Of a stretch of 64,000 nt of DNA, positions 1 to 55,689 are shown in pieces. A program made the translations under genes and the position numbers. Each line of letters opens with the position of its first letter. The first letter of the stretch is position 1. This stretch comes from Xylographa opegraphella (Eukaryota): assembly GCA_022813865.1 (NCBI GenBank), contig JALDZX010000042.1:1-64000 (forward strand), given 5' to 3'. The notes under the pieces were generated by a model. The model had not been told where the DNA came from, searched no databases, and saw nothing but the letters and a program-made list of their open reading frames with translations.

Positions 1-33
1 CCCCCCCCCATCCCCCCTCTCCCATCCCCCATC

Positions 34-486
34 TCACCTCCCCCCCTCCCCCTCCTCCAAAACCTCCCCAACACCCCACCACCCCACCCCCGGCCGCGGC
101 TCCAACACGCCCACGACACTATCCCCAAACACGGCCCTCTCCTCCTCGCGCTCCTCGATGCTGAAGCACGAGCTGCGCCGCCGATCGGTGCTGCGGCAGG
201 AAGATGCGAAGCTGTGGGTGCGCGGCGTGTAGAAGGCGGACGCGGACTGGGCGAGTATTTCGGCGAGGGAGGAGGGCGCGCTGAGGGTGGAGCGGAAGGT
301 GGCTGTCGAGGCGGTGGAGGGGGAGCGGGAGGGGCGGGTGTGGAAGGGGGAGGGGGGGGTGGTTGTGAGGGGGTGGGGGGTGGTGGTGAAGGGGTTGGTG
401 GTGAAGGGGTTGGTGGTTGAGAAGAGGGGGCGGGTGGCTGTTGTGGTGGTTTTCGTGGCTGTGGTGGTGGGGTGTGGGGAGGGCAT
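34..486 (-). CDS. Small hypothetical protein (~150 aa), Thr/Pro/Ser-rich N-terminus
   Basis: ATG at 486 in ORF 34..810, preceded by a pyrimidine-rich 5' region; C-terminus ERAVFGDSVVGVLEPRP..GVGEVLEE looks protein-like; no family recognised. Confidence 0.45.
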   Translation of the reverse strand: MPSPHPTTTATKTTTTATRPLFSTTNPFTTNPFTTTPHPLTTTPPSPFHTRPSRSPSTASTATFRSTLSAPSSLAEILAQSASAFYTPRTHSFASSCRSTDRRRSSCFSIEEREEERAVFGDSVVGVLEPRPGVGWWGVGEVLEEGEGGR

Positions 487-11185: not shown

Positions 11186-12426
11186 ATGGCTACCGCGACT
11201 CGGAGTGTTCCGTTCAGCTTGATCCTGTCCTACATCCTTGACTGGATCATTATTGCGTATGCATTCTGGAATAGAAGACAAAATACAGAACTGACAGACT
11301 TACAGACTCATCGCTGTTGCTGGTGCGCTTTTCACTCTTACCACGCCGAATCACCACCCTTTCTCGCCCACAGATCCCAGCATTGCGTACCCTTATGTTG
11401 TCAATGAGAAAGTCTCGACAAGTACGCTCGTGCTCGTCTCACTCGTGGCACCAGGCATCATCACAGCACTAGTATGCCTCATTTTTGCGCCTGGACGCGC
11501 TGCCTCGAGAGATATGCCCGCATCTCTGATCTGGCGGCGCAAACTTTGGGAATGGAACACTGCTTGGATGGGTCTTGGATTAGCGCTTGCTGCTGCCTTC
11601 ATGATCACCGATGGGATGAAGAACTTGTTTGGCAAACCGAGACCTGATTTGCTGGCTCGTTGCGATCCCGATATGGCCAATCTGCAGAATTATGTTGTGG
11701 GAGGATTTGGGACTGCTACCAGTGGTGGCCTTCTTGTTTCGTGGCAGATTTGCAGGCAGACGAATCGATCTATATTGAACGATGGCTTTGCGTCGTTCCC
11801 AAGCGGTCACTCTTCTTGTAAGTTATCTTTGTGAAACTTCCGACAATCAGTGCTGATATCCTCGGTCAGTTTCATGGGCCGGCATGGCATATCTGAGCCT
11901 TTTTCTATGCTCGAAGTTTGCAATAGCAATCCCATACCTCCTTCCCAGTGCATACGGCTCGAGTTCTTCAAGACCGACAGCTGGTGGCCGCCGCTTAGAC
12001 TCCCCACTGGATCACCCCAAGAATCCTTTGCAACCCACGGACCCAACACCCCTATCGAAGATACTACGGTCTCAAGCCGCCGCTCCTCCTACTTACCTCC
12101 TCGTCATCGCCTTCATTCCCATCGGCACGGCCATCTACATCTCCTCCACCCGCTGGTCAGATTTCTATCACCACGGCTTCGACATCATCTTCGGCTCGCT
12201 GATGGGGTTTTTGCTAGCCTGGGGAAGTTTCCGCTGGTATCATGCACCGATCAGGCGAGGGGCTGGCTGGGCGTGGGGTCCGAGGAGCTCGGAAAAGGCG
12301 TGGGGAATTGGGATGGGTGTCCAGGGCTATGCGGGCGAGAGCGAGTGGAAGCGGGGGGATGAGGATTTGGAGCACGGGGGACGAAATGTTAATGAGCAGA
12401 TTGGAGCGGATATGGTTGAGGCCTAG
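11186..12426 (+). CDS. PAP2-superfamily lipid phosphate phosphatase (DPP1/LPP1-like)
   Basis: Catalytic motifs KNLFGKPRPD, SFPSGHSS and SSTRWSDFYHHGFD; several TM segments; introns ~11257-11305 and ~11818-11869. Confidence 0.92.
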
Positions 12427-14327
12427 ATGGGATTGTAGAATGGATAAAGCTTAATGTGAGTGTAGGTTGTGGGTTGGATGTTTTGATATATATTGCAGAT
12501 TTTCAATCCGGCAGGAATTCTTCTGTTGCATTTTCAGATCATAAATGGTGTTTTCTGCCTTTGCCGTATTTACCCCCTCTGGCATTCGCGCCAGGCTTGG
12601 AAGCCTAAGATTCTTCTTGGTTCTCTGAAATAGCGTAAACAGCTGATGCTTTCCATTGTTTGACGAACACAGGCTAAAGATGGCCTATTTTAGATTATGC
12701 TCTCTTTAGGATAGCTTAGGCTTCTAGCCTCGGACGGAACTATTACTTTGTGCAACCAACCGTAAAAAAACATTCGGCTTCCGCAATGCTTGTAACTCCC
12801 TAATTCTGCATAGAACAGAATATTGAGCTCCGCATGGATAAACACATATTCCAGCTTCCCAATTTGAAGCTTAGTACGGAGTATCGCTGGATTTGATAAC
12901 GGATAGAGAACCGCCCGTGTTTGCTGTCATCCTTCCTTAGCCATTGTGCTCTAGGTTGGCAAGTGAAGTCGCACGAACACCTTACCCTGATGGTCTGCTC
13001 TTCGATTGGACATGATGCGAAATTGGTTGTATGCTGTGTACAACTCCAATCTGAGTCAGAAAGCCTGTTGCGATGATTGTGTAGCTGGAACACCTGATGT
13101 TTCGGTGGAGTCCTGCCTATGCCGCATTCTTGCCCGATTCTTTTCCTATTTTCCGTGGTTCGTATTATTGTGCTCCCACACAAGACACTTCTTGGCCAAA
13201 ATTGCTGGGTGAGCGGAGTATGGAAACGCTTCTTTGTTGCGACTGTCGCTGAAGTGTGAGGCACTATGTATGAAAAGTGGATAACTTGTTGTTATGAATG
13301 TGTCAATTTCTTGGAGTTTCTATCGAGTATCTCGACGTGGACATCGTCGAGAAGAGAGTTTTGGTCAGAGAACAAATACCCAATGCGGGAGTACGCTTAT
13401 CATGCTCAGTCTACATCCTCCGCGATCCAGGTCGTATACACTAACCAATACATTATACGAATTTGGAGTTATCCTGGGCTTATTCCCACACGCTTCAGGC
13501 CGTGTATTCGGTCTTTGCTTCAATTTTGAAACAACGTCTCCACAATGAGGATCTCCAGGAAAATTGGGTTTGGCTCACCGTAATACCAGGCCGTGGCTGA
13601 TCGGAAGGACACAACTTTCCGGGCGAGACTTCCTTGTCGATGTTTAACAACAGAATTGATTGAAGGGACTGGGCAGTAATTCAGACCTTGCTCTCAACTC
13701 TATACCTTGGTGCCATTGCTTCGTCCCAAATACGAAATTTGATAGTTTACTACATCCGATTCTTCCCTTGTGTTACAATGCGCAGACTCACCATAGAGAC
13801 ATATAACTACTACGGCAAGAGTTTGTGAGCGCCAGCACAACTTACGGCGTTGAGATTTCTTTTCATGCTGACTCTAATAAAGCAAATACTGCCTTTGGGT
13901 CGATATCTTAGCTCTGATGTAGAGTTACTTTGACACTATGGTGCTGAATTGAGGCTTTTCTCTGAGCTCTATTTCATTAACACTGTGTATACTTTGCCTC
14001 AACTTATGATCCTATTTGGTCAACATGCTCACTGATGCTTTGATTTACTATTATAACTTCCCTCTGCAACATCCTGGCTATTGAAAGTGTTCGTATTTAC
14101 CATAGCAGCCAGCCTCTCGAGATGTTGCTGTGTACTTGATTTGCAAATCTTTCCATTCACATACAACAACCACAGTGGACCATCGCTTTAACACGTCCAT
14201 ATCATCCGACCACCACTTACCCCGTCACCCCAAGACCTTTCATCCTATCTCACCACCAGCTCAGTCAACCACCATCTCACATCACCTCACCCCAGCCCCA
14301 AAAGTCTATCCTCCCCATCCGCCCACC

Positions 14328-15221
14328 ATGTCCATCTTCCATCCAACACCCACCTCCCTCGCCACCGCCATCCACACCACCCTCACCCGCGCCTGCGCCC
14401 CCCACCCCTCACACAGCTACAAAACCGCCCTCTTCGCCACTACCATCACCGCCGCCGACCCCGTCCTCACCTGCCTGCACCGCCTCTCCACCTCCACGCA
14501 CATCACCCCCTCGGAGCGCCACCTCTTCACCACCACGCACACGCGGCTCTCCTTCCTCCTCGCCCAAGAAGCCGCCGGCGTCCCCATCTCCAACACCCAA
14601 CTCCTCCTCAACGCCCTCCTCGTCGACGACCTCGTCGCCGTCCTCGACGCCGACTTGCGCGCCAGTGGCCAAATGCCCCTTTCGGAACCCCTGTCGCCCC
14701 TCGAGCTCGACACAGATCCCGTGGAGGTCTTGTTGCACGCCACGGCCACCGCGCTGAGGCGGGCCTGCGACACTTCCCGCGGCGGGGTCCTGCGCACCTG
14801 CATCTCCGGCGCGAAACAGCTGCTCGTCGCGCTGGAGGGCCTGAGCCGCGACGGGCGGCTGGCGGAAGAGGAGAGGGCGGTCTTCGCCCGCGCGAGGGAC
14901 GAGCTGCACCGGCTGTGGGCGCTGCAGCGCCAGGGAGACAAGGTGCGAGACCTGCACGAGGCCGAGGCCTTGTATATCGCGTATCGGGCGTGGTGGCGGC
15001 CGGTGCTGGGGGTCTTGCAGCGGGATAGGGAGAGGAGGGCTGGTGGCGCTGGGGAGCGGGTGGATGGGCAGACTGTCTTTGCGGCTGCGTTGGCGAGCGG
15101 CGAGTGGATTGTCAGGGAGGGTGGGGCGGTGGATGGGGGGAGTGCGCCGTTGAAGAGGGCGTCAGCGACGGGGAGTCTGGCGGCGTCGTTTAGGAGGAAG
15201 GTGAAGGGTGTATTTACGTGA
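14328..15221 (+). CDS. Hypothetical orphan protein with two diverged helical repeats
   Basis: ATG in CCCACCATG context; open for 297 codons; internal repeat L.RAC...I..A...L..L..LS......ER..F.....L..L. Confidence 0.7.
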   Translation: MSIFHPTPTSLATAIHTTLTRACAPHPSHSYKTALFATTITAADPVLTCLHRLSTSTHITPSERHLFTTTHTRLSFLLAQEAAGVPISNTQLLLNALLVDDLVAVLDADLRASGQMPLSEPLSPLELDTDPVEVLLHATATALRRACDTSRGGVLRTCISGAKQLLVALEGLSRDGRLAEEERAVFARARDELHRLWALQRQGDKVRDLHEAEALYIAYRAWWRPVLGVLQRDRERRAGGAGERVDGQTVFAAALASGEWIVREGGAVDGGSAPLKRASATGSLAASFRRKVKGVFT

Positions 15222-16029
15222 GGGGCTGATCGGGGGGGAGGGAGAGGGGCGCGGGTGTGGGGTGCTGTCGCGGTGTCTCGGAGGATTTTTTGGAGTTCGC
15301 GCAGCATTGCTGGCCGACTTTTCAGAGTGGATATGCATCGGCGGGCGGTGCGGGAACGCGACAGTCGTGTTTCTCGCGCTGGGGCTGGCGGTGAGAAGAT
15401 GATATCCCCGCGCTCTGGATCGGTGCGGCATTTGCGATGGGGTAGCTGGTCGTTATGTGATACTCCTTTAACCAGGTATTTTTGCACGGCAGTAGATTTC
15501 AACCCGATTGCCCGCCTGCGATCCAGCAGATTAGGTTGTGATGAGCTGAACTGCTGTAGAAGCTGGAGAGTGCTGGGCAGACCACATCGTTGAGCGCACT
15601 TCCGAAGCCTGATGGCGGACTGCCCAATACGAGCTGCTTCGGCGATCGTGTCGAGCTTGGCTCGATTCATGATCGTGGAGAGGGAATCGGGAGGATGGAG
15701 GATTCCTGAGGTAAATATGGCTTTCGGGTATGAGATGGCGGAGGACCCAGTAGCAAGGTTAAGATAGGATAATGAACAACAAAATGACAGAACATGACAT
15801 GTCGATCAAGGAAATGCGATTGAAGTCCCACGCTCAAAGGTCACCAGTGATACCTCCCCGAAGCTCTGTTGTACATCCACCGCTATGCGTACACAAACAA
15901 AACAATGGAGAGATCTATATCGCCAAGCCGGTACGCTCGATAATCCTGCACGAAACGCCATCCACCCAACGACCCGAGTCTCAGATCAAAACACCAGCCC
16001 TCAGTCTCTCAAACCCCCAAACCCCAAAT

Positions 16030-27300: not shown

Positions 27301-27695
27301 GCTATTTGCTCGTGCTGCATACTTTTGACGAGGAGGGTGAGGAGGGTGTGGGTGTGGGTGCGGAGCAGTGTGTTCGGCTGCTGAGGAGGGCGAGGGATCG
27401 GGGGGAGTGGGAGCTTTGTAAGGAGCTTGCGAGGTTTTTGATGGCCCTCGATGGGGAGGGGCGCCGGTTGAGGGATGCGATGGCGAAGTTGGGCTTTGGG
27501 GCTGCTGGGATGGGGGAGGTCGTGCGGCTGAGGGCGTTGGGGACGGAGGACGGGAGGGGGGTGGGTGAGCGGAGTTGGAGTGCGAGTGGGAGTGGGGCCA
27601 GTGGGGAAAGCGGAGGTGGAGGTGAGGATTATTTCTCCGCGAGGGGGGGTGAGATGTTAAATGCGCCGAAGGAGGGGTGGGGTTCTACTAGCTAG
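24377..27695 (+). CDS. RIC1: RIC1, Ypt6/Rab6 GEF subunit (WD40 + RIC1 domain)
   Basis: MYWPLGAPRVY start; IAVAGRRGLAHYS, VDFYP, VQCTRKTELRSW, LKTAGGYLLVL and WELCKELARFL; about four introns. Confidence 0.93.
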
Positions 27696-29064: not shown

Positions 29065-29208
29065 GATGACTCGATTATGTGGGAAATGGAAGATGGAGTG
29101 TGCTGAAGTGTGCTGAAGCATGAAAGCAAAACAGCAGACGGGGGCAGAATATGAAGCACGTTTATGCTTTCGACCCTGTGCTCTCGTCATCAAGCCCCCA
29201 TTCGGCCA

Positions 29209-30690: not shown

Positions 30691-31568
30691 GTCTGGTCTC
30701 TATACGGCAAGAGTGATGAGAAAAGAACAAAGTTGAAGTGCAAAAATGGAGAGTGCGAGAGATACAAGCGAGCATCGGCAAAGTTGGAATCTGGACAAGA
30801 TCTTGCAACAGTCACATATCTTCGGTCAGATTCCTCGCCTCGTGAACGCATCGATCGTGGACAGACACATCGATCCATCGTCGCCGAACCAGAAGGTTGT
30901 GGCTTTCACATCCGTGGTCGAGGAGGCTGCTAGGTACTAGGATGTGAAAACTCTCGAGAGCGCTCAGACCATCAGTCATGTACGGCACAATTCACTACGA
31001 CATGCACCACGACACGAATCATCGGAATCTCTTCATTGAAGTATCTTTCCGGACTATGCCCTCCAAGCCATTACCAGTCCCGTGCAATAAAGCCACGTCA
31101 GCTAAAATAAACAGTTTGTTGAGACAGCCAGCCCGAGCACCCACCAGCCCTCACACGACCGTACGCATGAAAAACGAATGCCAGACTTGCAGGAGGCAGA
31201 CTTGCACGGGCTGGGTTCCGCGAGCCGCTGAACATGCTGAAAGCAAATTGTGTTTGAAGGGGTTGGTGGTCCGAGTCGCTTTTCTTTTGTGGTCGCAGGG
31301 TCCCTTGCTGTGGAGTAGTGTTTCTGGCTGCAGTATGCTTTTGCTTCTAGTAGCCCGCGATGGCGGTATCGAACAACCACCAACAACAGAGATGAGATCG
31401 AGCTCAGTCAGCCAGTGTGCTTGGCGACAGCAAAAGGAGACCTCCGCAGAGCCCATAATGTATACGCAGCAGCCCGCTCCATTGTACCCTTCCCCAAATA
31501 TATCTATCGCCATGCCCACTCCTCCTGACCCTTTCTGCGGAGTTGCCTGATCTTGCTCGGTCCACGCA

Positions 31569-36852: not shown

Positions 36853-36905
36853 ATGCTCATGCTCATGCTTATGCTCACGCTCATGCTCACGGTTATGCTC
36901 ACGCT
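36853..36905. repeat. Hexamer microsatellite (ATGCTC)n downstream of the CWF19 stop
   Basis: catgctcatgctcatgcttatgctcacgctcatgctcacgg... Confidence 0.8.
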
Positions 36906-36911
36906 CTTTTC

Positions 36912-39191: not shown

Positions 39192-39390
39192 GGTTTGGGC
39201 GGTGGTGGTTGGGTTTGGGTGGATGGGTGGATGGGTGTTTGTAGAAAAAACGTCATAGGTGAGGTCGGTGCGCGGATTGGCAAGCGAGAATTGGGGACCT
39301 CTAGCTTAAACTATATTTGAGATTTGGTGTCCAACCACCACCGACTATGCGTCAATAACTCATGTCGGAGTAGCTAAACATCTCTTCAAA

Positions 39391-40670
39391 ATGGCAGAGT
39401 CACCTGTAGCAATCGTCTGCGTCGGCATGGCCGGTGGGTTCTTCCTCTCCCACTACACCGTGCCCAGCTCTAACGAACCACCACCCCCACAGGCTCCGGC
39501 AAAACGACCTTCATGCAACGCATCAACTCGCACCTGCACGCGCAGCGCTCCCCGCCCTACGTGATCAACCTCGACCCCGCGGTGCGGAACGTTCCCTTCG
39601 ACAGCAACATCGACATCCGCGACTCGGTCAACTACAAGGAAGTGATGAAGCAGTACCAGCTCGGCCCCAACGGCGGCATCCTCACCAGCCTCAACCTATT
39701 CGCCACGAAGATCGACCAGATCCTCGGCCTGCTCGAAAAACGCACGGCCCCCGATCCCGAGAGGCCGGACGCCGCGCCCATCAAGCATATCCTCATCGAC
39801 ACCCCGGGCCAGATCGAAGTCTTCGTGTGGAGCGCGTCCGGGGCGATACTGTTGGACTCGTTGGCCTCGACCTTCCCGACTGTGATTGCGTACGTGATCG
39901 ATACGCCGAGGACGGGGTCGACGAGCACGTTTATGAGTAATATGCTGTACGCGTGCAGTATCCTCTACAAGACGAAACTGCCCATGATCCTCGTCTTCAA
40001 CAAGACGGACGTCAAAGACGCCGCCTTTGCCAAGGAGTGGATGACGGACTTCGAAGCCTTCCAAACCGCGCTCAAGGCCGAAGAGGAGCGCGGCAGCTTC
40101 GAGGGCGGCGGTGGCGTCGGCGGCGGGTCCGGGAGCGGCTATATGGGCTCGCTGCTCAACAGCATGAGTCTCGTGCTTGAGGAGTTTTACCGCCACCTCA
40201 GCGTCGTCGGCGTCAGCTCCATGACCGGCGCCGGCGTGGCCGACTTCTTCGCCGCCGTCGAGGAGAAGGCGGCGGAGTATGAGCGCGATTATAGGCCCGA
40301 GCTGGAGCGGCGGCGGGAGGAGAGGCGCAGGGATAAGGTCACGCGCAGGGACAAGGAGCTGGGGAAGCTGATGCGGGATATGAACGTCGCGCCGGGCGGG
40401 GAGGGTGCGAGGCCGGTTTCTGGTTTGAGCGCGGCGAGGGCGGCGCAGAGGGAGGGGGCGGGTACGCTGAGTGATTTGGAGGATGAGGGGGATGGGGATG
40501 AGAGGGACGAAGAGGAGGAGGAGGAGGAAGAGGACGGGGGAGAAGGGGGTGCGGAGGAGGGCTTGGAGGGGAGATATCAGAGGGCATTGAGGGACGAGAG
40601 TCAAGCGGTCGCGTCGGGGGAGGACCATAGCTTCGCGCGCTATTTGAACGCGAGTAGTATTAATCCTTGA
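39391..40670 (+). CDS. NPA3: GPN-loop GTPase 1 (Npa3)
   Basis: VGMAG|SGKTT P-loop, NLDPAV, LGPNGGI (GPN loop), DTPGQIEVF and NKTD; acidic tail; intron ~39434-39492. Confidence 0.95.
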
Positions 40671-41457
40671 CATGCTTTGTTTGTTCTTTTCGAGCCCGCT
40701 TCTAGCAGTGGGTGGGCGGGCAAGCAATTTGGGTGTACGGCCTGGGGCCGGGGGCGAGGGGCTTATATCCTCTTGCTATGTTTGCGGAGGCGCTTCACTC
40801 TATTTCCTTCTAAGATACCCGAAATTCACTCATCCTTTCAAGCCTCCTCGGGGCCAATTCCCCAACCCTCCCTCGCTCCACGCGTCCATTCAAAAAATGC
40901 GCGCTGCTATCGACGCACGGTTTCCTAGCATAGTACAGCGCGCGATCGACAGCCTCAAGGAGAAGTGGTTGTAGCACAGCACCATGCCGCCTCGCCTTCG
41001 CTGTTAACGCACCGGCTATCCCGCACGTGCGGACCGGAGTGGAGGGATCTCTCGATGGGTGTGTCGAGGGGTGGAAAGCGGCCCGGGGGGGGGGATTGTT
41101 CAGTTTTGTTTTCATCGAGGGTGTTCCTTTAATTTTCCACAGCCGTGACGAATGGTTCTGTCCGATATGCGGCGTTCCGTGGTCAGCAGGGCGGTTAATG
41201 TAATGCGGAAGGCGATTTAAGCGCTTTTGTGTTCTTTTGGCGTGTGTTATAACGGGTCTGTCGTGATCAGGAACTGTGTCGAGAGGAGATGGAGGGTGAG
41301 GAGAGACTTTGGTTCCGGGCTACGCAACATAGATCTTCTAATAGGTAGATGCATTGATATCTTCCCTTTCTAACCACAATATCCGTCCCCCACCATCTCA
41401 CACCATGCGACGCTAAATATCAAGCCATCCTCCCCACCTCCCCCCCAACATGCTTCC

Positions 41458-42093
41458 TCACTCCCCCCACCGCCCACCTTCCCACTTCGCCACCGCCTCC
41501 TCCCACCCCTCCCCACCCACGCCCTCACACCTCCCCCCAACCACATCCCAGCTCCTCCCCCTCACAATCCCCTCCACGCCCCTCTCGACCCTCACCCTCC
41601 GCGCCAACTCCTCCGTGCGCGGCTCCTTCGGAAAGAAGCGCCCGCTGTACGGATCCAGCCGCTCGTCCACCACCCTTTCCCGATCGCGGATCCCCTCCGC
41701 CTGCCGCGCCAGCAGCTCCGGATCGTCCGGGTCCGGGGACGTGGCCACCGAGGCGCAGTACGTCAAGGCCTGCGTGCGGGCGTGCCAGGCGGGGAAGAGG
41801 GCGGTGGCGAGGTAGGTTTTGCAGGTGGTGCGGGGGACGCGGTGGGATGAGGGGTGGGGGCGCGGGGCGGTGCGGTTGAGGGGGGTGAATGGCGCGGAGG
41901 GGGTGAGGGCGTTGAGGGTGGCGAGGAGGGGGTCGTCAGTTGTGGCGCGCGAGAGGCGGAGGAAGTCTGGGTGGGGTTAGATGGCGGAGGACGGGGTGGA
42001 GGGGATGGGAGACGGACCTTGTAGGGCGGTGGGATGGAAGCAGAACTGGGGCGTCAAAGCTGGGGGTTGTGCTTCTTCTGAGGGGATGGGCAT
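41458..42093 (-). CDS. MIX23: Mitochondrial intermembrane-space protein Mix23 (Cid2/CCDC58 family)
   Basis: LTPQFCF...LQ|DFLRLSR..DD, LFPAW..R...LTYC and DERLDPYSGRFFPKEPRTE; intron 41967-42017. Confidence 0.88.
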
Positions 42094-42731
42094 CGTGGGA
42101 GGTGGAGGCGCGGGCGCGGCCGAGGGCGAGGGCGAGGGCGAGGGTGAGGGTGAGGGCTCAGGGGCCCAGAACGAAAGTGCCAGGATGAGGGAGTATGGGA
42201 GACGGTCTGGCTGTGTGGAATGATGGTGCGGAGGATGTTCAAGGACCTTGAAGATGTGGCTGAAGACACGGTGGGAGACGTCGAAATCGGAATGGCAAAT
42301 CGGAATTGCGGTTAGAGTACGAAGTATTAGGCTTGAGATCAGGCTAGTCAGGGCTACCGCCCAGCATGACGTCGTCCACAGTCGCGTCCGCGGCTCGAGT
42401 CACGTCTTCGAGCACCGCGCTTGAGCAGCACCGCGCTTAGTCTGCGATTTCTGTCGTCTGGACGAGTGGACCGCCTTGGGTTTGCGCCTTGTATTTTACT
42501 TACCATTCTATAGATTGGCTGGACCGAGTTTACTTTGGCTTTGTCGCGTTAGCATTGCTTGACAGCATTGCTTGACAGCATTACAACCGTCGCCTCTCAA
42601 GCCATTCGTCGTCAATCGGAGCGTTCCCTTCACACAGCTTATTGCATGCAGCCACCAACGTTGAAACTTCTCATTCGTCCATTTCGCTGTTAGAAGTCTT
42701 CTGCTACTTTGCTCAATTCGCATCCAAGAAT

Positions 42732-44609
42732 ATGCCTGAAATAGGAGAAGGTAGCATAGCCTGCTTGGGGATACGCTACACTGTATACGTGCTTACATAT
42801 GATACGACGCAGTCGCTCGAATCGTCAATTACATCCGACAGCATCTGGTAGGGAGAACTCTCGCGGTCGTCAAAGCCCAGCATGACGAGAACGTCTACGG
42901 CAAGGTGGGGACCTCGGCGACGGAGTTTGAGAAAGCCTTGGCGGGGAAGAAGGTGCTGGGCGCGAAGCAGCAGGGAAAGTACTTCTGGTAAGATACGCGA
43001 GACTGGTTCTTCTGCATTTTTGGTCGATATCGCACAATGCCTTGCGGCAGAATCGTTAATCATGTTTAAACATAATTTCCTCTAGAGCCCTGCCGGGAAT
43101 GCACAATCTTTTGTGATTTTATCGGTGATAGTGTATAGTTTTAATTCTAAGACTGCATCTGACACTTCATTCCCTCTAGGTTAGAGATGTCCTCGCCACC
43201 CCATCCCTTGATGCATTTCGGCATGGCTGGCGTAGGTATCTCCCCCCATAGATCGCATATAGCAATTGGAAATAGGCAGACACCTGCTGACCTCTCATCA
43301 CAGTGGTTCAAGATCAAAGGCTTAGAAACGGCGTATTACAAACCTACAAAACCAGTACCCGCGGACGAGTGGCCCCCGAAGTACTGGAAGTTCACACTCG
43401 AAACCCTCGAAGAGTCGGGTAAACCGGTAACCGAGGCTGCCTTTGTAGACTTCCGCCGCTTCGCGCGCATCAGGTTGATAGACTGTCCTGCCGAGGAAAT
43501 GCGCAACACAACGCCGCTGAAAGAAAACGGTCCAGATCCTGTCGCTGACAGAGATATTCTGACTGTAGAATGGCTGGCAGAGATATGTGCCAAGAAGCAT
43601 ATTCCCATCAAAGCCTTGTTGCTGGATCAGGCAAACGTCAGCGGCATCGGCAACTGGGTGGGGTATGTCTTCACTGCTTTGTTGTCGTCGAGCGGGATCT
43701 ATGCTTGTGAGAGGCTACTGACTAATATCACGCGTGTACAGGGACGAGATCATGTACGACGCCAAGATCCACCCGGAGCAGTACAGCAACACTCTCTCCG
43801 CAGCTCAGATCACCCAGCTCCACAAGTCAATCCACTACGTCTGTTCACTATCGGTCGAGACACTGGCAGATTCTAGCAAATTCCCTGAAGAATGGCTCTT
43901 CAAACACAGGTGGGGCAAGGGCAAGAAGGATAGTAAAAACCAACTACCAAACGGTGCGAGAATAGTGTTTATGACTGTCGGAGGCCGGACAAGCGCCGTC
44001 GTGCCGAGTGTCCAAAAGAAGACGGGAAAGGTGGCCGGTGACGTCAAGAGAGAGGATCTGTCGGAGAGTGAGGCCGATGCAGTTCTGAGAAACGGGGATG
44101 AGTATAAAGAGCCAAAGCTGAAAGCTAAGGCAAAGGCAAAAGGCGCAAAAGGCACCAAGAAATCTCAAGACGACGAAACAGTTCCAGAAGTATCTGAAAC
44201 AAAGTCCACCGCGACGAGCAGCAAGCGCTCGGCGCGTGCAGCAAAGCAAAAGCCCACCGATTCAGAGAGCGAGCCCGTCGTCAAAAACGCTCCCATTACA
44301 AATGGCACTCCTCCCACGTCCCGAAAGCGCAAGCCCAGAAATGCCCAGAACCATGACGCTGCTGAACAATCACTAAACGAAGAAGAGCCAAAAAGTGAAG
44401 AACCCACAGACGCAGATGCCGAGCTGCCCAAAAGCAAGAAGCGGAAACCGCTCGCTAAGACCGTCGCCCGAACGGCCAAGAAGCCCATGGCGAATACGAC
44501 CAAGAAGAGAGAATCGACTATGCGGGCTACCAATGCTGAAGTTGCGAGTGCTGAAGTGGACGCCCCTGCGCGACGAAGGTCCGCCAGGGTCAGCGGAGGC
44601 GGTGCGTGA
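42732..44609 (+). CDS. Formamidopyrimidine-DNA glycosylase (Fpg/MutM family) with basic disordered tail
   Basis: N-terminal MPEIGEV, QQGKYFW, HFGMAG, DFRRFARI, H2TH region IKALLLDQANVSGIGNWV.DEIMY and VGGRTSA; four introns. Confidence 0.93.
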
Positions 44610-45567
44610 AGGGGGAACTGGGGAGTTTGGAAGATATCTGTGGACAGCTATCTCAAGAATCCCACAATCTACTGGGAAGGTATTGGGTAGATCTTAACCA
44701 ACAATCAATGCAACATCTTCGCGCTATTCGCATCAAGGGGCTCGTCGGACTTCCTACCGCGCAATGTCCATCACCCTGCCCCCTCCTGCGTACTTCTCAA
44801 GCATATCTTGTTCCATAACTCTACGGCCCCAAACTCCCCGCCCACGCCTTCGCATCCACATTCCCTCTTCGACCTCTTCTGCCACAAGCCATGCCCAACC
44901 GCCATCGTAAAACACGGCGTTCCACTAAACCCTGCTATCAGTCCCTCCACCACCAATGCACCGTCGGCATTTAGTAACTAATCTCACACATCCCCGGTCT
45001 TTTCTCTTTCCCATCTTCGGCCCACCCTCCCTTTCCCCCTCTCCTTCCGCAAACATTCTCACACCCCCCCGATTGACGATATAGGGCGCGGGGCTACGGA
45101 GCGGGAGCGCGGGACAGAGACCCCGATTGCATAGACGGACAGCTACGGGTGTAGATGCTCCGTGGCGAGTCGGCATCGGCATATTCTACAGTGTTTTCTC
45201 AGGAGGACAGGTCTCGCGAGACCTGGCTGGCCCCGGAGCCTGACTACGCGTGGCACGCAGCCTGGTATCGCAAAAGAGGGACCGAGGGGTCTACGGTACG
45301 CAAACAAGGTGCTTTCAAGCCCAGCTAATAGGGCAGATGGAACTTGTAGAGAGCAAGGTGCGTAGATATGCGCAGATCAGATGTGACCTCGGCGGGTGGG
45401 ACAAGGTGAGATGTCTTTTTGGAAGACCGAGCTAGCGTCGCCATTGGCCTGCTGGGAAACAGACAGCCTATCACTACCTATGTAGCTTCGCGGCAAGCTC
45501 GCGAGCGATAACTTCCTTTTACATGGCTCCTATCGTACCCTCAACCAGCACTTTCCTTTCTTGTCAA

Positions 45568-48215
45568 TCAGGGCTTTTTCTTTTCCTTGACTTGGAAGAT
45601 AGCCGCTTCCGGCCACCGTTCCGCCGCCTTGGCTGAGACTTTCGACGCATCACCTCCCCATTCCTTGACGATCTCTAGCGCTCGAACCGCGTCAGTCATT
45701 CCTATCGATTCCTCGCTTATCATGCGCAGCACTTCTTTCTCGTTCGCTTCTCTGGTTCCGGGGTCGAGGAACTGTCGGGCCTGGAGGCCTGCCAGTTGAT
45801 GCTGGGCACTATCCTTGTGCTCCTTCAGGAAATCGTTATTGTGCTTTTCGAGGTCGGCTTTCGATGATGGGTAGCGTGACGAGAACTCTGAAGTGATGAC
45901 TGCCGAGACTTTTGGTGACAGGGGGTCGGCGAGGGTGGAAAGCGCGTGTTGTAAACGGATAAGTTGGTAATGAGCTATCGGATCGGAGGGTGAGGTGGAG
46001 AGGGCGGCGAGGAGACAACGGACTGCGAGAAGGTACTTTTCTAGGAGCCGTTAGCATTCAAGTGATGTGGTCACTGGAGTAACGAAGATGCGCGCTGTGA
46101 ATACATACTGCGTCGGATAAACACCTCGAAGCCCACTCGTTGTGCTTCTAGGCTCTTAGGACTGAATTCCAAGAGAGGATCCAAGAACTTCATGGCATCT
46201 TTTAGTGGTTCGGTGGTCTGCACAAGCTTCTCACCCTGAGGATCAGTGTCCACCTTTTTTACCTCGCCATCTGCACCAGCTACACCAGCAGTCTTTTTGG
46301 CATCTTTCTTCTCGGCATCAACTTGATCTTGCTTCTCCTTCTCCTTCCGCGCTCTCTTTGCCGCCTTCTTTGCCTCGTTTGGATCAAGCTTACCATTACC
46401 ATTCACGCCATTGGGATGTGAGCCGTGAGCTAAATAGGGGTTGTCGTGTAGTAAAATGTAACACTGGATGGCGTTCATTGCCGCCCGCGAATAAAATGGA
46501 TGATCTCGAAGGTGATCCTCCCACCGTATCATATCCACATATGCTCGTATTTGGCCTTTCCGTAATGAAAAACTATGAAAGTCGAATTGATCTTCTTGCC
46601 AGACCTCAAAAATGTTATAGACAGCGGTAAAGCGCTTCAAGGCTAGACCGATTCTCATTTGTCTCATATACGATTCCCCGTCTTCTGTGATGTACCATAT
46701 ACACTGCATGTCATGGAGATCTCCTAGGGGACCGCCCACAGCTTCAACTTTCGTGAACTTCTTCATGGTCTCGAGTGCGGTTTCGTGATCATCATTCCGT
46801 AAATGGTACTTGGCAGCTTTGGTGTATATGTACCGGTCTCTGATGTCTAAACTTCGAGCATATTCCATTGTCTCTGCTGCTTTGTGAATATTGCCATTGT
46901 GTTTCCATATCCTTGCCTTTGTCATATGGAGGTCAACGGAATTCGGACTCAATTCTATCGCCTTGTCGATATAACTCATAGCTTTCGGTAGATCGCGACT
47001 CAGATAGTAGTTGTAGTGTTGCGCAAGGAAGTAGAGTGTGGAAGTCTCGAAAAGAGAACTCGAGCCATTTGTTTGTTTGTCGGTAACACCATTCGTCTGT
47101 GGTGTATGAGTGCCAGCGGCATAGCTTTCAACGAGTTCCTGTACCACGTTGCATTTACTGGAATCCTTATACAGGGCTTTAATGTTTGCGAAAGTTGAAG
47201 GAACGCCTTTGTGGAGCATTCGTTGTAAGTATTGATCTGCTGCTTCCCGGAAATCGTCACCTTGGTAGAAGTCCAGTGGGATCCTTCGTGCGGCATCCCC
47301 TCTTGGGTTTTTGTCGGCATACGCACCATAAAGCTGTTTGATAGCCGTGGAGTCTGACAGATCCAAGCCCAAAGCACTCTGTAGACCTTCATAGTATACT
47401 CGAAGTTCCGCATTCCGATCAATTAATGCTCGGTATACCTTTTCTGCTTCCTCTTTCCTTTCGAGCCTCAATAGGTATGTAGCTCGCATTTCCATTACCG
47501 ATTGCTTATCAACGCTGTTTTTTGCCGCTGCATCCAAGTGCTCAAGTGCTCGTTCAATCTCCCCCATCTCTGCAATGATTGTGTTTTTGTACAGAACAGC
47601 CTCAGCATGTTCCATATCGGTCTTTGGTGGTGGACTCTTTAATGTTTCCTCATACGTTGTCATTGTCCTTTCTGCCTCCGTCAACTCACCAGCAAGATGG
47701 TGGGCAATTGCCAATGCTGTCCAATTGGCCCTCAGAGCAGGCCGCGCTTGCAGCATCGCCTTTCGACTTTGTATATAGCCTTGATAGTCTCGCATCTGCA
47801 TCTGCAGCAGCGCCAGGTCCCGCTGGATCTGCTGCGATTCCGGTTCCAATCGCAGTGCAAACTTGTACGCCTTGATAGCCTCCTCGAAGTTTTTCGCCGA
47901 CCGCCAGAGCAGGCCGTAGACATGCCAACAGACGTGAGACTTCATGTCGTTGGTCAGTGCGATTTTGGCCAAGGCGAATGCCTCATCGGAATGACCTTGG
48001 GAGTTCATTATGAGTGCCTTCATAGCTTGTGTGTCCCCATGATTAGGAGCTTTCCGCAGGATCTGTTCCGCCGCTTTGAGCCCTAGGGAACTGTAAGTGT
48101 TCTGTCATAGATGAGGTAGACAAGCTACAGTACCTTTCTTGTACTGCTTGTTCTCATAGTTCTTCACCACTTGTGTGAAAAGTGTTCGCTCCTTGGAGCT
48201 GAGAGGCTGAGGCAT
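45568..48215 (-). CDS. NAT1: N-terminal acetyltransferase A auxiliary subunit Nat1 (NAA15)
   Basis: MPQPLSSKE..YENKQYKKG, SHVCWHVYGLL, RDLALLQ, KARIWKH and EDQFDFHSFSLRK; introns ~48083-48133 and ~46041-46108. Confidence 0.95.
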
Positions 48216-51056: not shown

Positions 51057-51299
51057 GCTCACGTTTCGTAGGGATTCATCAAAGTACGGAACGTATCAGA
51101 GGACGATGATGCTAAGTAGTCGGGAAAGATACCGAATCGTCACAAGCATTGAATGAACCGAGGTTGGCCGCAATTTGCGGTATTGCTTACCCGGTGGCGG
51201 GACATTACCTTTCAGCCCTATCCAACCGGCCAAGTATGGTACCTGATATTCACGATAATTATCCAGAAAGCTCCATACAAGAGCAGACCTGCCTCAACC

Positions 51300-52624
51300 A
51301 TGGTATTCACTCTCCTCCGGTGTGTTGAACTTATCTGACTTCTCCCAGGCACAAGTTATCACGAACTCCGGTCACGAAGACATGATTGTACGTCCAGTCG
51401 CCATGCCATGTCAATTGAGCTCAATTGCGCCCCAACCCTCTGTACCAACCTGGAGCTATCAGTGCTGACTGAAAGGGTATAATAGCATGATGCGGTACTG
51501 GACTACTACGGCCGACGGTTAGCAACCTGTTCGTCAGATAAGACGATCAAAATCTTCGATATAGAAGGAGACACGCATAAATTGACCGAGACATTACGGG
51601 GGTCTGCTTCATTCACAGCTCCCATAGCATTGTTCTACCACTGAACCTCTCCAGGCACGATGGCGCCGTATGGTGCGTATCATGGGTACTTCTCTCCTCT
51701 GCCCTGTCTCTCCATCGCTATTCGTCTCTTACCCATGTTCCCACACTGCACCAAATCTATCTAACTCCAAACACCACCGCTAACTCAACCACAGGCACAC
51801 CCCAAATTCGGCCCTATCCTCGCCTCCTCTTCCTACGACGGCCGCGTCCTGATATGGCGCTCCACCCCCACCAACTCCTCCTCCAACTCCCCCTCCACAT
51901 TCCAAAAAGTCTTCGAATCGACCCTCCACACCGCATCCGTCAACCTGCTCGCATGGGCCCCCCACGAATGCGGCTGCCTACTCGCCTGCGCCTCCTCGGA
52001 CGGCTGCATCTCAGTCCTGGAGTTTCAAGACGGCAGCTGGAACCACGTCGTGCTCAAGGGCGCCCACGGGCTCGGCGTCAACAGCGTGAGCTGGGCACCC
52101 AGCGCGCGGCCCGGCAGCCTCGTCAGCGCGAGCCCCGAGAAAGGCGCCCTGCGGCGAATCGTCAGCGGAGGCAGCGACTGCCTAGTCAAGATCTGGGACT
52201 GGAAGTGAGCGCCCCCAACCCCATACCCAGCCCCAAAAGCAACCAACACCCAGCTAACCCGCTCCCCCCCTTTTTTCTTCCTCCCAGCCCTGAACACAAA
52301 ACCTACCACCTCAGCAACACCCTCACCGGCCACAGCGACTGGGTGCGCGACGTCTCCTGGTCGCCGACCATCCTCGCGAAATCCTACATCGCGTCCGCGG
52401 CGCAGGACAAGAGCGTGCGCATCTGGACCTCCAGCCCGACGTCCGACCCCTCCCACCCCGTCGAGTGGACCAGCACCGTCCTCGACTTCGACGCCGTCCT
52501 GTGGCGCGTCAGCTGGAGCCTCAGCGGCAACGTCCTCGCCGTCAGCGGCGCGGATAATAAGGTCAGTTTGTGGAAGGAGAATTTGGCCGGCGAGTGGGAT
52601 TGCGTTAAGTGGATCGAGGAGTGA
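51300..52624 (+). CDS. SEC13: COPII/nucleoporin WD40 protein Sec13
   Basis: [54 protein letters not shown] and [18 protein letters not shown]; five introns. Confidence 0.96.
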
Positions 52625-52979
52625 GTGGGCGTGGATGGCTGGGGATAGGTACGGCGGGCGAGGGGGGGGGGTGGGGGGATGGGGAAGGGGTAGTTGTCAT
52701 CTCCCTCCGGGGGCGCGAGGGCAGGAGGGGAAGGGGAGAAGCGTTTCCCATCCTACTATATCAACTACCCTAGAGAAAAAGTCTACTCGAAATACCAACA
52801 TTTTCCGCAACCCACTCGCTTTCTGCACCAACCCATACTCGTGGGCGCGTAGACTGGTCTTTTGTGAGCCACCCGTCCATGGCTGCCCGTCCGCTGCTTG
52901 GCTGAGGCGCGTTCTGTAGTCGATGTTCCGCAGCTGGCCTTCATCGTCTCCGCTCCCGGCTTGGGCTGGGAGTTGGGAT

Positions 52980-53047
52980 GGGTATGAGTAGGTAGGGTAT
53001 GAGTGAGTAGGGTATGAGTAGGTAGGGTATGAGTGAGTAGGTAGGGA
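52980..53047. repeat. ~4.5 x 15 bp tandem repeat (GGGTATGAGTRRGTA)
   Basis: gggtatgagtaggta-gggtatgagtgagta-gggtatgagtaggta-gggtatgagtgagta. Confidence 0.85.
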
Positions 53048-53441
53048 TATAGACGCTTGGCACTAGAGCCGGTCACAAGTGGTTTACGCACACACCACAC
53101 TCTCCGAGACGGATGCGAGAGCCGCACGTGAGAAGATATTGTATATTGCCCAGGACGAGAGGAATGAACAGAACGAGTGCAAGAGAGAGCGGGTATCGAG
53201 AGCTGGGTATTTGTGTAGGTGGGTAGGTAGGTGGGTAATAGTCTCCCGAAAGGCCCACAACGACGAGACCCCCGAGCTACATTCATTTCCGACTTCCCAC
53301 CCCTCCGCATCCCACCCGGGCCAGCGAGCCAGTTCGACGGCGAACTATGACCAACGACAATAGATTCTCCGCTAAACACTCCCACTGAACGCCGCCCGGA
53401 AGCGCGTCCGCCGCACACCGCGCACCCGCCCCATCCCGTTC

Positions 53442-55689
53442 TCACGGAACCCCCACCCTCACCCCCTCCTCCACTCCCCCCTCCCCATAATCCACATTCC
53501 AAAACAGAAACGGCCCCGTAGACGTCCTCTGCGCCAGATTACGAGGCCCTGGCGCAGGCAAGCCATCCAGTTCACCCGCAGGCGTCTCGCTAGGACACCA
53601 CCAACGGCCCTGCCGGAACGAAAAGAACAGACGCGATCAGCTCGCGGTATGCCTCTGGCGGACGACGGCCTCCGGGAGAGGGATGACACTTACGAGCATG
53701 ATATTCCCCCCGGGCAGGACAACGCCCTCGTAGGCCCAGTGCTCCACCTCGGCGCGCGCGAGGCCGTCCGGCCCGTGCATGGCGGCAAGGTGCTTCTCCA
53801 CAGCGGTGGGGGCGAGGGCTTCATCCGCGGGGGCGAACCATGCTATCATAGTGATGCGCTGGAAGCCCGGGACCGGGTGCACGTGCTGCGGGTCCTGGGC
53901 GGGCAGGGCGCTGACGTAGCCGGCGCAGAGGTGTTGGTCGGGGGTGTGGGCGAGGCCTTGGAACTGGTGGTAAGGTATCTCGGGCGCGGTGGCGTGTGCG
54001 GTTGGTTCTTGGTGGAGGGGGGTGTAGGTGTTGGCTTTGGAGGCGAGGTGGCGCTCGAAAGACGCCGGCCAGGGAGCCGGGCGGCGGGAGAAGTCTAGCT
54101 GAAGAGACAGGAAGCCGTCGTCGGTGTCTTCGACGTCTATCACGTCGCTGTAGATATCGCTGCTGCGGCGGGGGGGAGGGGGGAGGTTAGTACGGCTTCT
54201 GCGCAACTCGCGTGGATCGGTGGGGGGGAAGTACCCTGGGGTGTTGCCACGCAGGCGAGGGGCCGTTTGGTGGACGTTGTCGAGGTATGCTGTTGGTGGG
54301 GAGGGTGGTGCTTGTCAGTCGGAGATCTCGAGGTCGCTTTGCTGTGGGGGGAGCGGAGGGTAAGAAGGAGGGGAGGCTTACCCAAACATCCTTTCCAATG
54401 CGTACCGAGCTTTTGCGCGCCGGTCTTCACGGGGAAGTCCCACGCCCGGGGTTTCTCTTCGTCGGGCAGAGCTTGGAAGGGGGCGTGCAGCGAGTATTCG
54501 TCACGGTTGACGATGTGGTATTTGAAAAAGTTCACCTGGGCGGCATGTTAGCGAAGCGGAAGCACAGCACGAGAAAACGGTGCTCGAAGCCTGCGCCGAG
54601 CAGAGCCATACAATATGAAGCAAGTTGTCAAGATTGAGCTTCGACTTAAGCGGCCCGTCGGTGAATAGTGGGTAATCAAGGGGGTGGCCTAGCAAGGAAA
54701 ACATTTGTTCAGTAGCAATTTCGAGGTATTGAGCGTTTCATCGACTGACCGTAAACCGCTTTTTGAGAATACTCGAAGCAGTGAGGGACACTGGCATGCT
54801 CGTCCAGCGCCAGATGGGTGAGAACGAGACGATAGAGTTGAAGCTGCGGAAAGCTGAGTGACTCGTTGTTGGCGAAGCGCATGCTGTTGTCCAGGAAGCT
54901 GCTGTCCGCGATAACCTCAGCGAGGTGCTTGAGATTCTTGGAGACTCGTTGGCCGGTGTGAGAGGAGCGGTACGAAGACCCGACCGCGAAAGAATCTGAG
55001 ATGTCAGCAGGCCTGGCATATCAAGGAGCTGATGATAGAGTAGTTGTGGAGTGAGGATCTCATGACGCTCGCGAAAAACAGCCACTTCGTCGGTATCGGT
55101 AGCACATACCATCAATGAGCTCCCCTACGAACTCAATAATAGCACCCTCGTTGTTCTTAATAGCATCAATGCCTCCAACCACCTGGATCCGACGTTTCTT
55201 GAGCCTCTTGCGCATCCACTGGCGGCACTTGTATTCCAGGTGAAAGTTGACTCCAACACCCCAGATGGATGCCGGGATATCGTACGATTCCGCGAAGCGC
55301 TGAATCCAAATGCCAGATCTCGGATGGCTGATGGCTGCATGGGTCTGCTGGCAGGTAGCATCGAGATTGCAGAGATCTCGATCTCTCGGAAGGTAGAATG
55401 CCACACGATCGATTATCTATCGAGCTTAGCAACCCACAAAACTGCGGTCGACATGAGCAGTCGGCTTGCTTACTTCAGGTGGAAGAATGTTCAATGCTCG
55501 CTGATAATGATCCTCGGAGACTGATGGGCGTAAGCTGCGAACAGCAGAAACGGCTGCACGGGAAGCCGATGGAGCATTCAAACGATTGTTGAAATTAATC
55601 ATTTTGGGCAGCACGGCCGATCGATCTCTGGATTTGTTCATAGCGAACAGGCCTCGCGGGTGACTGTCTAAGGAAGTTGGGCGAGACAT
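53442..55689 (-). CDS. F-box domain protein (multi-exon; start uncertain)
   Basis: F-box-like LNILPPE|IIDRVAFYLPRDRDLCNL..TC; later exons NFFKYH, LGTHWKG, FQRITM, WAYEGVVLPGGNIML|GRWW and TGPFLFWNV. Confidence 0.8.

Follow-up and report, generated by a model that had tools for sequence, protein, structure and literature searches.

In fungal genes the coding strand favors C near the 5′ end and G near the 3′ end (McLean & Tirosh 2011, BMC Genomics 12:638; PMC3315797). The accessible part of that report places the skew at 4-fold degenerate sites, promoters and untranslated regions (UTRs), describes an effect on amino-acid use, and leaves the cause open between mutation linked to the phase of transcription and an adaptive idea. 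C-skew at the transcription start sites of plants and fungi is set out in the available portion of Fujimori et al. 2005 (PMC555766), and a GC3-rich class of grass genes, with 5′-3′ gradients in GC content at third codon positions (GC3), in that of Tatarinova et al. 2010 (PMC2895627). Here we analyze a 64,000-nt stretch of DNA (the window: positions 1 to 64,000 of contig JALDZX010000042.1, assembly GCA_022813865.1) from Xylographa opegraphella, a lichen-forming ascomycete and Lecanoromycete, in which islands of about 1 kb run from extremely C-rich to extremely G-rich. The best reading of these islands is that they are an extreme, GC-rich, local form of the published and unexplained fungal within-gene skew.

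All nine GC-rich C-then-G blocks that an earlier interpretation of the letters alone (here the sequence-only reading) had proposed are present near their proposed positions in 400-bp and 100-bp profiles, and four additional smaller ramps lie at 11990-12495, 36850-37700, 40800-41330 and 52750-53240. In 400-bp windows the skew, (G−C)/(G+C), climbs from about −0.6 to about +0.4 at a GC content of 0.66-0.72; it passes, for instance, from −0.61 at 26801-27200 to +0.41 at 27201-27600, and from −0.59 at 28001-28400 to +0.41 at 28401-28800. In logistic fits the C-to-G switches fall at 171, 14744, 27272, 28481, 38543, 40391, 41706, 52509 and 53593. An absolute skew of at least 0.5 together with a GC content of at least 0.6 is found in 4.31% of 200-bp windows, compared with a maximum of 0.30% in 100 shuffles made inside 1-kb blocks, and the biggest up-switch amounts to 1.29, compared with at most 0.87 in the shuffles. 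The contigs built from sequencing run X1 (~150x depth) show 0 differences to the window over 26906-33437, 33687-40475, 40544-42093 and 42166-46000. X1 is probably the run behind the window assembly and hence no independent sample, so the agreement excludes an assembler slip but not a library artefact. The X1 contigs are interrupted only at homopolymer or short-repeat runs, at 26929, 28581-28638, 40476-40543 and 42093-42166.

The skew is present at both 4-fold and intronic sites, which the sequence-only reading had singled out for checking, and is strongest at the former. We counted sites in frames verified by Pfam or orthologues (RIC1, GPN1, MIX23, CwfJ exon 1 and SEC13) and compared them with an ordinary-gene set (NAT1, the FAD monooxygenase gene, the 5′ part of RIC1, and the Etd1-like and AA12-like genes). 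Counts of A/C/G/T at 4-fold sites are 25/183/40/11 in the 5′ arms (n=259), 11/44/158/40 in the 3′ arms (n=253) and 426/451/423/413 in ordinary genes (n=1713), that is, 71% C in 5′ arms and 62% G in 3′ arms, as against ~25% of each base in ordinary genes. Two-fold pyrimidine sites have C:T ratios of 91:8, 34:44 and 382:376 in 5′ arms, 3′ arms and ordinary genes, and two-fold purine sites have A:G ratios of 24:25, 13:117 and 252:305 in the same order. The two-fold counts thus indicate an A>G drive on one strand per arm, with no excess of C>T. In each arm one strand has been pushed to G: A is nearly gone, and C and T are each lower by about one third. The symmetry of the two arms under reverse complementation is not rejected (chi-square ~5.4, 3 d.f., worked by hand from the 4-fold counts), which upholds the proposal that the pattern is its own reverse complement. 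It was also correctly perceived that islands run through exons, introns and UTRs alike: introns and UTRs follow their arm, with 52-57% C in C-arm introns and 47-58% G in G-arm 3′UTRs. Since 4-fold sites, introns and UTRs all carry the skew, amino acids are not its driver.

The encoded proteins are altered as the sequence-only reading had described, from P/T/H/L-rich to G/E/V/R-rich. The residues P+T+H+L+S make up 46% in C-arms and 20% in G-arms, whereas G+E+V+R+W rise from 20% to 49%; P (12.2%), T (7.7%) and H (7.3%) are prominent in C-arms, G (16.2%) and E (13.9%) in G-arms. The effect on conserved columns is modest: 64/219 depart from the outgroup majority in C-arms and 56/248 in G-arms, compared with 176/752 in neutral stretches. 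Amino-acid changes specific to X. opegraphella relative to five congeners are few, with 11 of A>G type and 4 of G>A type in G-arms and nearly none in C-arms; GPN1 of X. opegraphella adds the A>G-type changes K>R, K>A, I>V and Q>R. Runs X2 and X3, from other organisms of the same study, matched only in short conserved pieces at 80-90% identity, a coverage with which nucleotide substitutions cannot be polarized.

The skew profile is a sawtooth, composed of abrupt G-to-C drops and mostly gradual C-to-G switches. The drops have a logistic width of ~0 in 11 of 13 fits, the exceptions being those at 28112 (37 bp) and 42345 (4 bp). Among the 12 switch fits that converged (14 were tried), nine are gradual, with widths of 18-161 bp, and three are small steps. 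Five drops lie 45-120 nt beyond a stop codon: those of a PAP2-family gene (12495), an unnamed gene at 14 kb (15265), GPN1 (40790), MIX23 (41357) and SEC13 (52742); the G-arm of an unnamed gene at 28 kb likewise ends ~55-75 nt beyond the stop codon. The other drops are found in the divergent promoter of CwfJ and GPN1 (39330) and in introns of CwfJ (37829) and SEC13 (52212). Between the convergent RIC1 and 28-kb islands, a presumably untranscribed 250-bp spacer (27800-28050) is neutral, with C 59, G 63 and 49% GC. Every island is located inside a gene, and the abrupt features are the drops at unit edges, not the switches. Of the localized, strand-asymmetric mutation centered on fixed points that had been proposed, the localized strand pressure therefore stands, while the gene-independent fixed centers are not supported. 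A skew that simply tracks transcription direction without switching did not occur, as the switch is found inside single genes. In 10 of 10 gene-assignable units the coding strand is C-rich and then G-rich; the symmetry of the arms makes this polarity automatic for any block within a gene, so it is no independent evidence. End-anchored skew is seen in the small genes MIX23, the 14-kb gene and GPN1, but not in RIC1, SEC13, PAP2 and CwfJ. Enrichment of GC3 is separable from skew: the 3′ part of CwfJ reaches a GC3 of 0.8-0.94 while its skew stays low, and the PAP2 3′UTR presents the reverse case, with 40% GC yet a skew of +0.75. GC content is maximal at the switch cores (0.70, with a CpG observed/expected ratio of 1.17). 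Motifs for G-quadruplexes (G4) are specific to the arm: G-arms hold 13 on the + strand, C-arms hold 11 on the − strand, and the opposite strands have 0. A G-rich non-template strand with G4 motifs is accordingly present, an assignment that is valid only for sense transcription in 3′ arms.

The pattern extends beyond the window and beyond the species. The RIC1 proteins of five other Xylographa species have the same P/L/H-rich and then G/E/R-rich C-terminal region, and the locus tags of these species show the same gene order; the common composition implies that the RIC1 island is older than the species. For a broader comparison we used 80 metagenome loci with a CwfJ gene, of which the 68 of at least 4 kb were profiled. 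No close relative is found among the 80, the best reaching ~64% protein identity. Weaker versions of the same polarity are present in dozens of other fungal contigs. Extreme windows are absent in 48 of the 68 loci, and the highest proportion is 3.2%, compared with 4.2% here. The CwfJ orthologues of these loci have a 4-fold skew that descends to −0.50 and then rises to +0.14 over the last ~1 kb, and in the GPN1 orthologues it passes from −0.34 to +0.02. In 200-bp windows, individual contigs climb from −0.56 to as much as +0.79, and their ramps stop at the stop codon. In 25 other long open reading frames (ORFs) the 4-fold skew is ~−0.2 throughout and positive in the last 300 nt; in 19 of the 25 this terminal stretch exceeds the segment 450-900 nt upstream in G-skew. 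The all-site G-skew in the last 200 nt of CwfJ, present in 98-100% of 55 other loci, is mostly fixed by the protein and is not used as evidence. Pairs of nearly identical metagenome loci were likewise left out of the mutation spectra, since counts from them would say nothing at compositional equilibrium. The strong CwfJ ramp occupies the first 1.3 kb of the gene in Xylographa and the last 1 kb in other fungi; selection on the sequence itself is hard to reconcile with this difference in position between lineages. The gene that follows CwfJ downstream likewise has a C-to-G ramp right after an abrupt drop in other fungi (L038 9100-10000, L060 4400-5100, L010 5400-6566), and the sawtooth of consecutive genes is thus not specific to Xylographa.

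The pressure behind these observations is mutational, or at least does not act at the protein level: it is strand-specific and mirror-symmetric, has sharp outer edges and turns any base to G. The explanation that we favor, tentatively and at a little below even odds, is a strand-asymmetric mutation pressure confined to transcribed DNA, which would act through exposure of the non-template strand and not through protein selection or origin-like centers. The G-enriched strand would then be the unpaired one, namely the non-template strand of sense transcription in the 3′ arm, while in the 5′ arm antisense or incoming transcription would leave its own non-template strand unpaired. Bases lost or deaminated on the unpaired strand may be copied with C opposite, so that any base could become G; yeast Rev1 inserts C opposite abasic sites. 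The resulting G-richness would favor R-loops and G4, and the process may thereby feed itself and sharpen the blocks. A distinct regional rise in GC3, also present without skew in the 3′ part of CwfJ, probably adds to the effect.

Several observations weigh against this explanation. Conserved-residue changes polarized against orthologues, a test that the sequence-only reading had suggested, lean in the expected direction but weakly: 13 changes to C and 4 from C in C-arms, and 12 to G versus 5 from G in G-arms. The C-arm of RIC1 starts only after 2.3 kb of the gene, the 5′ exons of SEC13 and PAP2 lie outside their islands, and CwfJ carries two ramps, one with a G-arm ending mid-gene at an intron; with these layouts a simple rule of 5′ end versus 3′ end of the transcript fails. 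The RIC1 and 28-kb islands have a fairly sharp center and soft outer edges, as a process focused on the center would produce. Misincorporation of dGTP into the new strand would yield the same any-base-to-G spectrum. Arms of equal strength are not what strong sense and weak antisense transcription would be expected to leave, and NAT1, a housekeeping gene, is without an island. A bolder reading, in which the ramps are the footprint of self-reinforcing hypermutation on unpaired tracts of ~0.3-0.8 kb, exposed in R-loops at transcript ends or by break resection and copied with C opposite lesions, we consider doubtful.

The main rival, which also appears unlikely to us, attributes the islands to recurrent meiotic or mitotic double-strand breaks (DSBs), with the resected strand damaged or resynthesized in an error-prone manner and GC-biased conversion adding the GC-richness. 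A break-centered process gives mirror-image arms of equal strength such as those seen here, and the presence of the islands in five other Xylographa species, at the protein level, is what stable hotspots would leave behind; the arms, at 200-800 nt, are within the range of meiotic resection (reportedly about 0.3-2 kb in yeast), and ~one unit per 5 kb is similar to the density said to hold for yeast hotspots. Placed at the unit edges, in nucleosome-free DNA, with lesions in the 3′ tails copied as G, the breaks would account for sharp drops with gradual inner ramps; yet the expected break site, the spacer between RIC1 and the 28-kb gene, is unskewed at 49% GC, and no G-rich flank exists to the left of the RIC1 C-arm or of the CwfJ exon-1 ramp. 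Placed instead at the switch core, with dGTP misincorporated into the refilled strands, they would match the GC peak of 0.70 at the cores and the soft outer edges of RIC1, at the cost of requiring mid-exon hotspots at a roughly set 110-480 nt from stop codons and of leaving the step-like outer edges unexplained. Deamination of cytosines in resected tails, reportedly the yeast signature, is not seen (C:T 34:44 in G-arms), and the GC-richness ends at transcript edges with no smooth bell. GC-biased conversion, which the sequence-only reading had raised together with recombination or DSB hotspots, fails by derivation if it acts alone: each polymorphism offers both mismatch types equally often, depending on the donor allele, so pure conversion cannot skew strands, and a strong skew requires an added strand-specific mutational step. 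The smooth, transcript-blind and unskewed GC peak of a conversion hotspot is not what we find, as the GC content of the spacer falls to 49%.

A further account invokes selection for G-rich non-template DNA, whose R-loops or G4 would halt RNA polymerase II or end transcription at the ends of sense transcripts (3′ arm) and of antisense ones (5′ arm), insulating close neighbors in a compact genome as proposed for human terminal GC skew. We regard it as improbable. G-arms do adjoin stop codons or 3′UTRs in at least seven units, the G4 motifs are strictly strand-specific by arm, the genes are tightly packed, and terminal 4-fold G-skew is widespread in other fungi; but the rewriting of ~150 codons per arm, with 4-fold saturation and amino-acid change, goes far beyond what a pause element needs, many neighboring genes lack the pattern, and the CwfJ G-arm sits mid-gene. 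Replication origins, with leading and lagging skew switching at each island center, are very improbable, even though the C-then-G polarity and the G+T-rich, A-poor strand of the G-arms match bacterial leading strands. The units recur every ~5 kb, too densely for origins and often back to back (three within 39440-42345), and their skew is limited to ±0.5 kb and ends at gene edges instead of spanning a replicon; the sharp jumps are downward, opposite to the upward jumps of origins. The same polarity, which the sequence-only reading had likened to that of origins, is published for fungal genes, and dozens of unrelated fungi have it at corresponding gene ends. Least credible of all is an artefact of sequencing or assembly, or an effect of amino-acid composition alone. 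Homopolymer runs do break the X1 contigs at the four places given above, and conserved protein fixes part of the all-site skew, as in the last 200 nt of CwfJ; against this stand the absence of differences to the ~150x contigs over the islands, open frames with Pfam E values down to 1e-63, the similar composition of the proteins of related species, and the location of the skew at 4-fold sites, in introns and in UTRs. Other candidates were rejected outright: cytosine deamination as the driver is ruled out by two-fold pyrimidine sites; CpG depletion, methylation or repeat-induced point mutation by a CpG observed/expected ratio of 1.10-1.17 in islands versus 0.90 elsewhere; a repeat or mobile-element origin by the conserved single-copy genes that traverse the islands; and an arm-to-arm palindrome or hairpin by the inverted matches, which are only of low complexity, 14-32 nt long and 72-93% complementary.

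Individual units differ in how much of a gene they cover. Island 1 (1-620) is cut by the window start and is C-rich at 1-170 and G-rich at 171-620 on the + strand, with a skew of −0.87 at 1-100 and +0.86 at 301-400 in the 100-bp profile; it belongs to an unnamed − strand gene, the GC3 phase agreeing with ORF 37-888, whose translation is T/P-rich and then G/E-rich. The PAP2-family ramp (11990-12495, + strand) comprises the last ~430 nt of the gene (Pfam PAP2 at 11857-12423) and ~70 nt of 3′UTR, where C accounts for 1 and G for 23 of 69 nt; its skew is −0.54 at 12050-12100 and +0.75 at 12450, before the abrupt drop at 12495. The 14-kb unit (14140-15265, + strand) covers a whole small gene, with a C-rich 5′UTR from ~14140 and a coding sequence at 14328-15221. 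Its skew starts at −0.8 and climbs in a nearly straight line to +0.66, with the switch at 14744 fitted at a width of 161 bp, until the drop at 15265. The GC3 phase agrees with the + frame, whose translation is protein-like, while that of the antisense ORF is junk-like; the gene has no Pfam match and belongs to no known family.

RIC1 (24490-27692, + strand; Pfam RIC1 C-terminal domain, E 2.6e-63) is ordinary over its upstream 2.3 kb, and its island (26700-27720) is confined to the last ~1 kb, which takes in the tail of the penultimate exon, a poly-C intron at ~26870-26945 (C 43, G 5 of 76 nt) and the last exon at 26946-27695. Third positions A/C/G/T per 50 codons pass from 3/39/8/0 to 0/5/35/10 around the switch at 27272. 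A search with the C-terminal exon returned RIC1 of the five other Xylographa species and no X. opegraphella protein; the deposited X. opegraphella gene model may be faulty because of the island and of the poly-C intron, at which the X1 contigs also break (26929). The 28-kb unit (28090-28860, − strand, switch at 28481) covers most of an unnamed gene convergent with RIC1. Its skew is −0.91 at 28300 and +0.82 at 28650, and the GC3 phase agrees with the − strand ORF 28168-28716 plus an upstream exon, with a translation that is T/P/S-rich and then G/E-rich.

CwfJ/CWF19-like (36778-39305, − strand; Pfam CwfJ_C_1 and CwfJ_C_2) and the GTPase gene GPN1/Npa3 (39474-40667, + strand; Pfam ATP_bind_1, E 3e-71) are divergent neighbors with a common short promoter (39250-39450). 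Their products are 100% identical to NCBI X. opegraphella proteins (P0001 = GPN1, P0241 = CwfJ exon 1). The head-to-head arrangement, with GPN1 on the opposite strand just upstream of CwfJ, is found in many unrelated Pezizomycotina metagenome contigs (including L016, L022-L024, L026-L031, L033, L035-L037, L071, L072 and L079). The exon-1 ramp of CwfJ (37830-39240, − strand) has third positions that are C-rich and then G-rich along the coding strand and is reset abruptly inside the intron 37783-37880, with a step at 37829; on the coding strand this intron, at the end of the G-arm, is rich in G+T, its 98 nt comprising G 28, T 42, C 13 and A 15. A second, weaker − strand ramp (36850-37700) lies in the 3′ part of the gene, where GC3 is 0.8-0.94 and the skew is mild: −0.53 at 36950, +0.28 at 37650, and +0.08 to +0.14 at 4-fold sites. 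The GPN1 unit (39440-40790, + strand) covers the whole gene, from the ATG at ~39450 to the stop codon at 40668-40670 and ~120 nt of 3′UTR, with the drop at 40790. Its ramp is shallower, with a strong G-arm in the last ~300 nt and 4-fold skews per quarter of −0.32, +0.17, −0.45 and +0.71. A small ramp between GPN1 and MIX23 (40800-41330; skew −0.56 at 40850, +0.51 at 41250) has no gene assigned, and its ORF 40813-41319 has no Pfam match.

The MIX23 unit (41357-42345, − strand; Pfam MIX23 at 41461-41976, E 4.9e-38) has the drop at 41357, the sharpest in the window, at its 3′ edge and comprises ~100 nt of 3′UTR, the coding sequence with a C-rich intron at ~41977-42027, the ATG at ~42095, and the 5′UTR; the switch is at 41706, and third positions A/C/G/T along the coding strand pass from 4/42/3/1 to 0/9/35/6. 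Short tandem runs occur inside G-arms, among them (GGT)n at 28590-28620, which is poly-Thr on the − strand, a GAG run coding for poly-Glu in GPN1 (40476-40543) and a (GAGGGC)n run in the MIX23 5′UTR (42100-42160). Their coincidence with the X1 contig breaks suggests that slippage adds to the arms. SEC13 (51581-52621, + strand, with Pfam WD40 matches) had been read as a single switch; its island (51690-52742) opens in an early intron, leaves out the 5′ exons and closes ~118 nt beyond the stop codon (52622-52624). It consists instead of two ramps, between which the skew is reset at the 5′ splice site of the intron at ~52207; the fitted steps lie at 52212 and 52742. C accounts for 42 and G for 8 of the 81 nt of intron b, and G for 69 and C for 16 of the 118 nt of the 3′UTR. 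Beyond it, a small ramp with no gene assigned (52750-53240) passes from −0.45 at 52800 to +0.70 at 53000 and drops at 53242, where the last island (53242-54400, − strand) begins. This island belongs to an unnamed gene with ORF 53640-54314 and probably another exon near 53300-53460; its skew is −0.68 at 53450 and +0.59 at 54000, the GC3 phase agrees with the − strand ORF, and the translation is plausible.

A Pfam scan of the 133 stop-to-stop ORFs of at least 120 aa in the window matched ordinary fungal genes. Besides the genes described above and NAT1 (46074-48104, − strand), these are SGTA, the PAP2 phosphatase, the FAD monooxygenase, PI-PLC, the AA12-like oxidoreductase, the Etd1-like gene and an Fpg/Nei-type glycosylase. 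Within the window ~10 genes carry a C-to-G ramp; NAT1, the FAD monooxygenase gene and the Etd1-like gene do not. NAT1 and the rest of RIC1 are as ordinary as the sequence-only reading had held: GC3 is ~0.5, with no consistent skew, in NAT1, in the FAD monooxygenase gene and over the first 2.3 kb of RIC1. Long antisense ORFs opened by GC3 saturation are found at 14420-15805 (−, 462 aa), 39699-40775 (−, 359 aa) and 27939-29039 (−, 367 aa); they use the same third positions as the real genes, their translations are junk-like, and they constitute a trap for gene callers. The Fpg/Nei-type DNA glycosylase gene, with an H2TH domain, occupies an unskewed, ordinary region (43163-44606) as two ORFs, presumably split by an intron, and encodes what we take to be a base-excision repair enzyme. 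Some 5 kb at 31600-36800 have a GC content of 0.55-0.63, many overlapping ORFs on both strands, mild skew and no Pfam match. A single N is located at 56197, in an AT-rich stretch 5′ of the AA12-like oxidoreductase gene.

The 5′-C/3′-G skew of fungi has had no accepted mechanism since 2011. At silent sites Xylographa shows it about three-fold stronger, and this amplification exposes a spectrum, a mirror symmetry and a sawtooth with resets at introns and gene ends that averages hide; spectrum, symmetry and boundaries constrain any mechanistic model. The islands also distort gene prediction, through poly-C introns and long antisense ORFs, as well as codon-usage statistics and protein phylogenies in lichen fungi. 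If hypermutation were the cause, the process would have the strength to bring silent sites to saturation and to reshape conserved proteins throughout a lichen genus, it would explain the skew reported in 2011, and R-loop or break zones could be mapped in unculturable organisms from sequence alone.

As far as the accessible part of McLean & Tirosh (PMC3315797) goes, their skew resembles ours in its C-5′/G-3′ polarity, in its presence at 4-fold sites, UTRs and promoters, in the accompanying amino-acid shift and in its mutational interpretation. Theirs is a genome-average gradient across 64 mostly yeast-like species, negatively correlated with GC content, whereas Xylographa has discrete units of ~1 kb in some genes only, with absolute skews up to 0.9 and a GC3 of 0.8-0.94, which can start 2.3 kb into RIC1, reset at SEC13 and CwfJ introns, or have a G-arm mid-gene; AT skew varies by arm in Xylographa and is flat in their data. 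The C-skew of Fujimori et al., in the portion available, parallels the C-rich coding strand near the transcription start, as in the MIX23 and 14-kb gene 5′UTRs, but is a start-site peak only, without a paired G-arm or GC3 saturation. Grasses, in the portion available of Tatarinova et al., likewise have genes with a GC3 above 0.8 beside ordinary ones and a position-dependent preference for C3 or G3, but their CG3 skew amounts to no more than ~0.05-0.1 and does not switch from C to G. Skew goes unmentioned in a paper that deals with GC3 in lichen genomes (PMC12492740; no match to the term). We found no description of such islands in the open-access literature on lichens, Xylographa, recombination hotspots or R-loops, and no mechanism in the titles or abstract openings of open-access papers on opposite GC skews.

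Two further systems invite comparison. In human genes, GC skew reportedly accompanies R-loops at both 5′ and 3′ ends, as Ginno and colleagues are said to have described in 2012 and 2013. The likeness lies in a G-rich non-template strand at 3′ ends in gene-dense regions and in the G4 capability of the G-rich strand; bidirectional CpG-island promoters also switch from C to G. The human switch, however, is at the promoter, the 5′ ends are G-rich on the coding strand, opposite to Xylographa, and the amplitudes are much lower. Strand-coordinated mutation clusters in yeast, which Roberts, Gordenin and co-workers are said to have traced to resected DSB ends and damaged single-stranded DNA, share with the islands a strand switch at a point and a scale from below 1 kb to kilobases, and a change of any base to G on the damaged strand is expected there when C goes in opposite abasic sites. 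The clusters are single events dominated by changes at C, and the C-loss polarity around a central break is opposite to that of Xylographa, where the composition is at or near saturation and is common to the genus.

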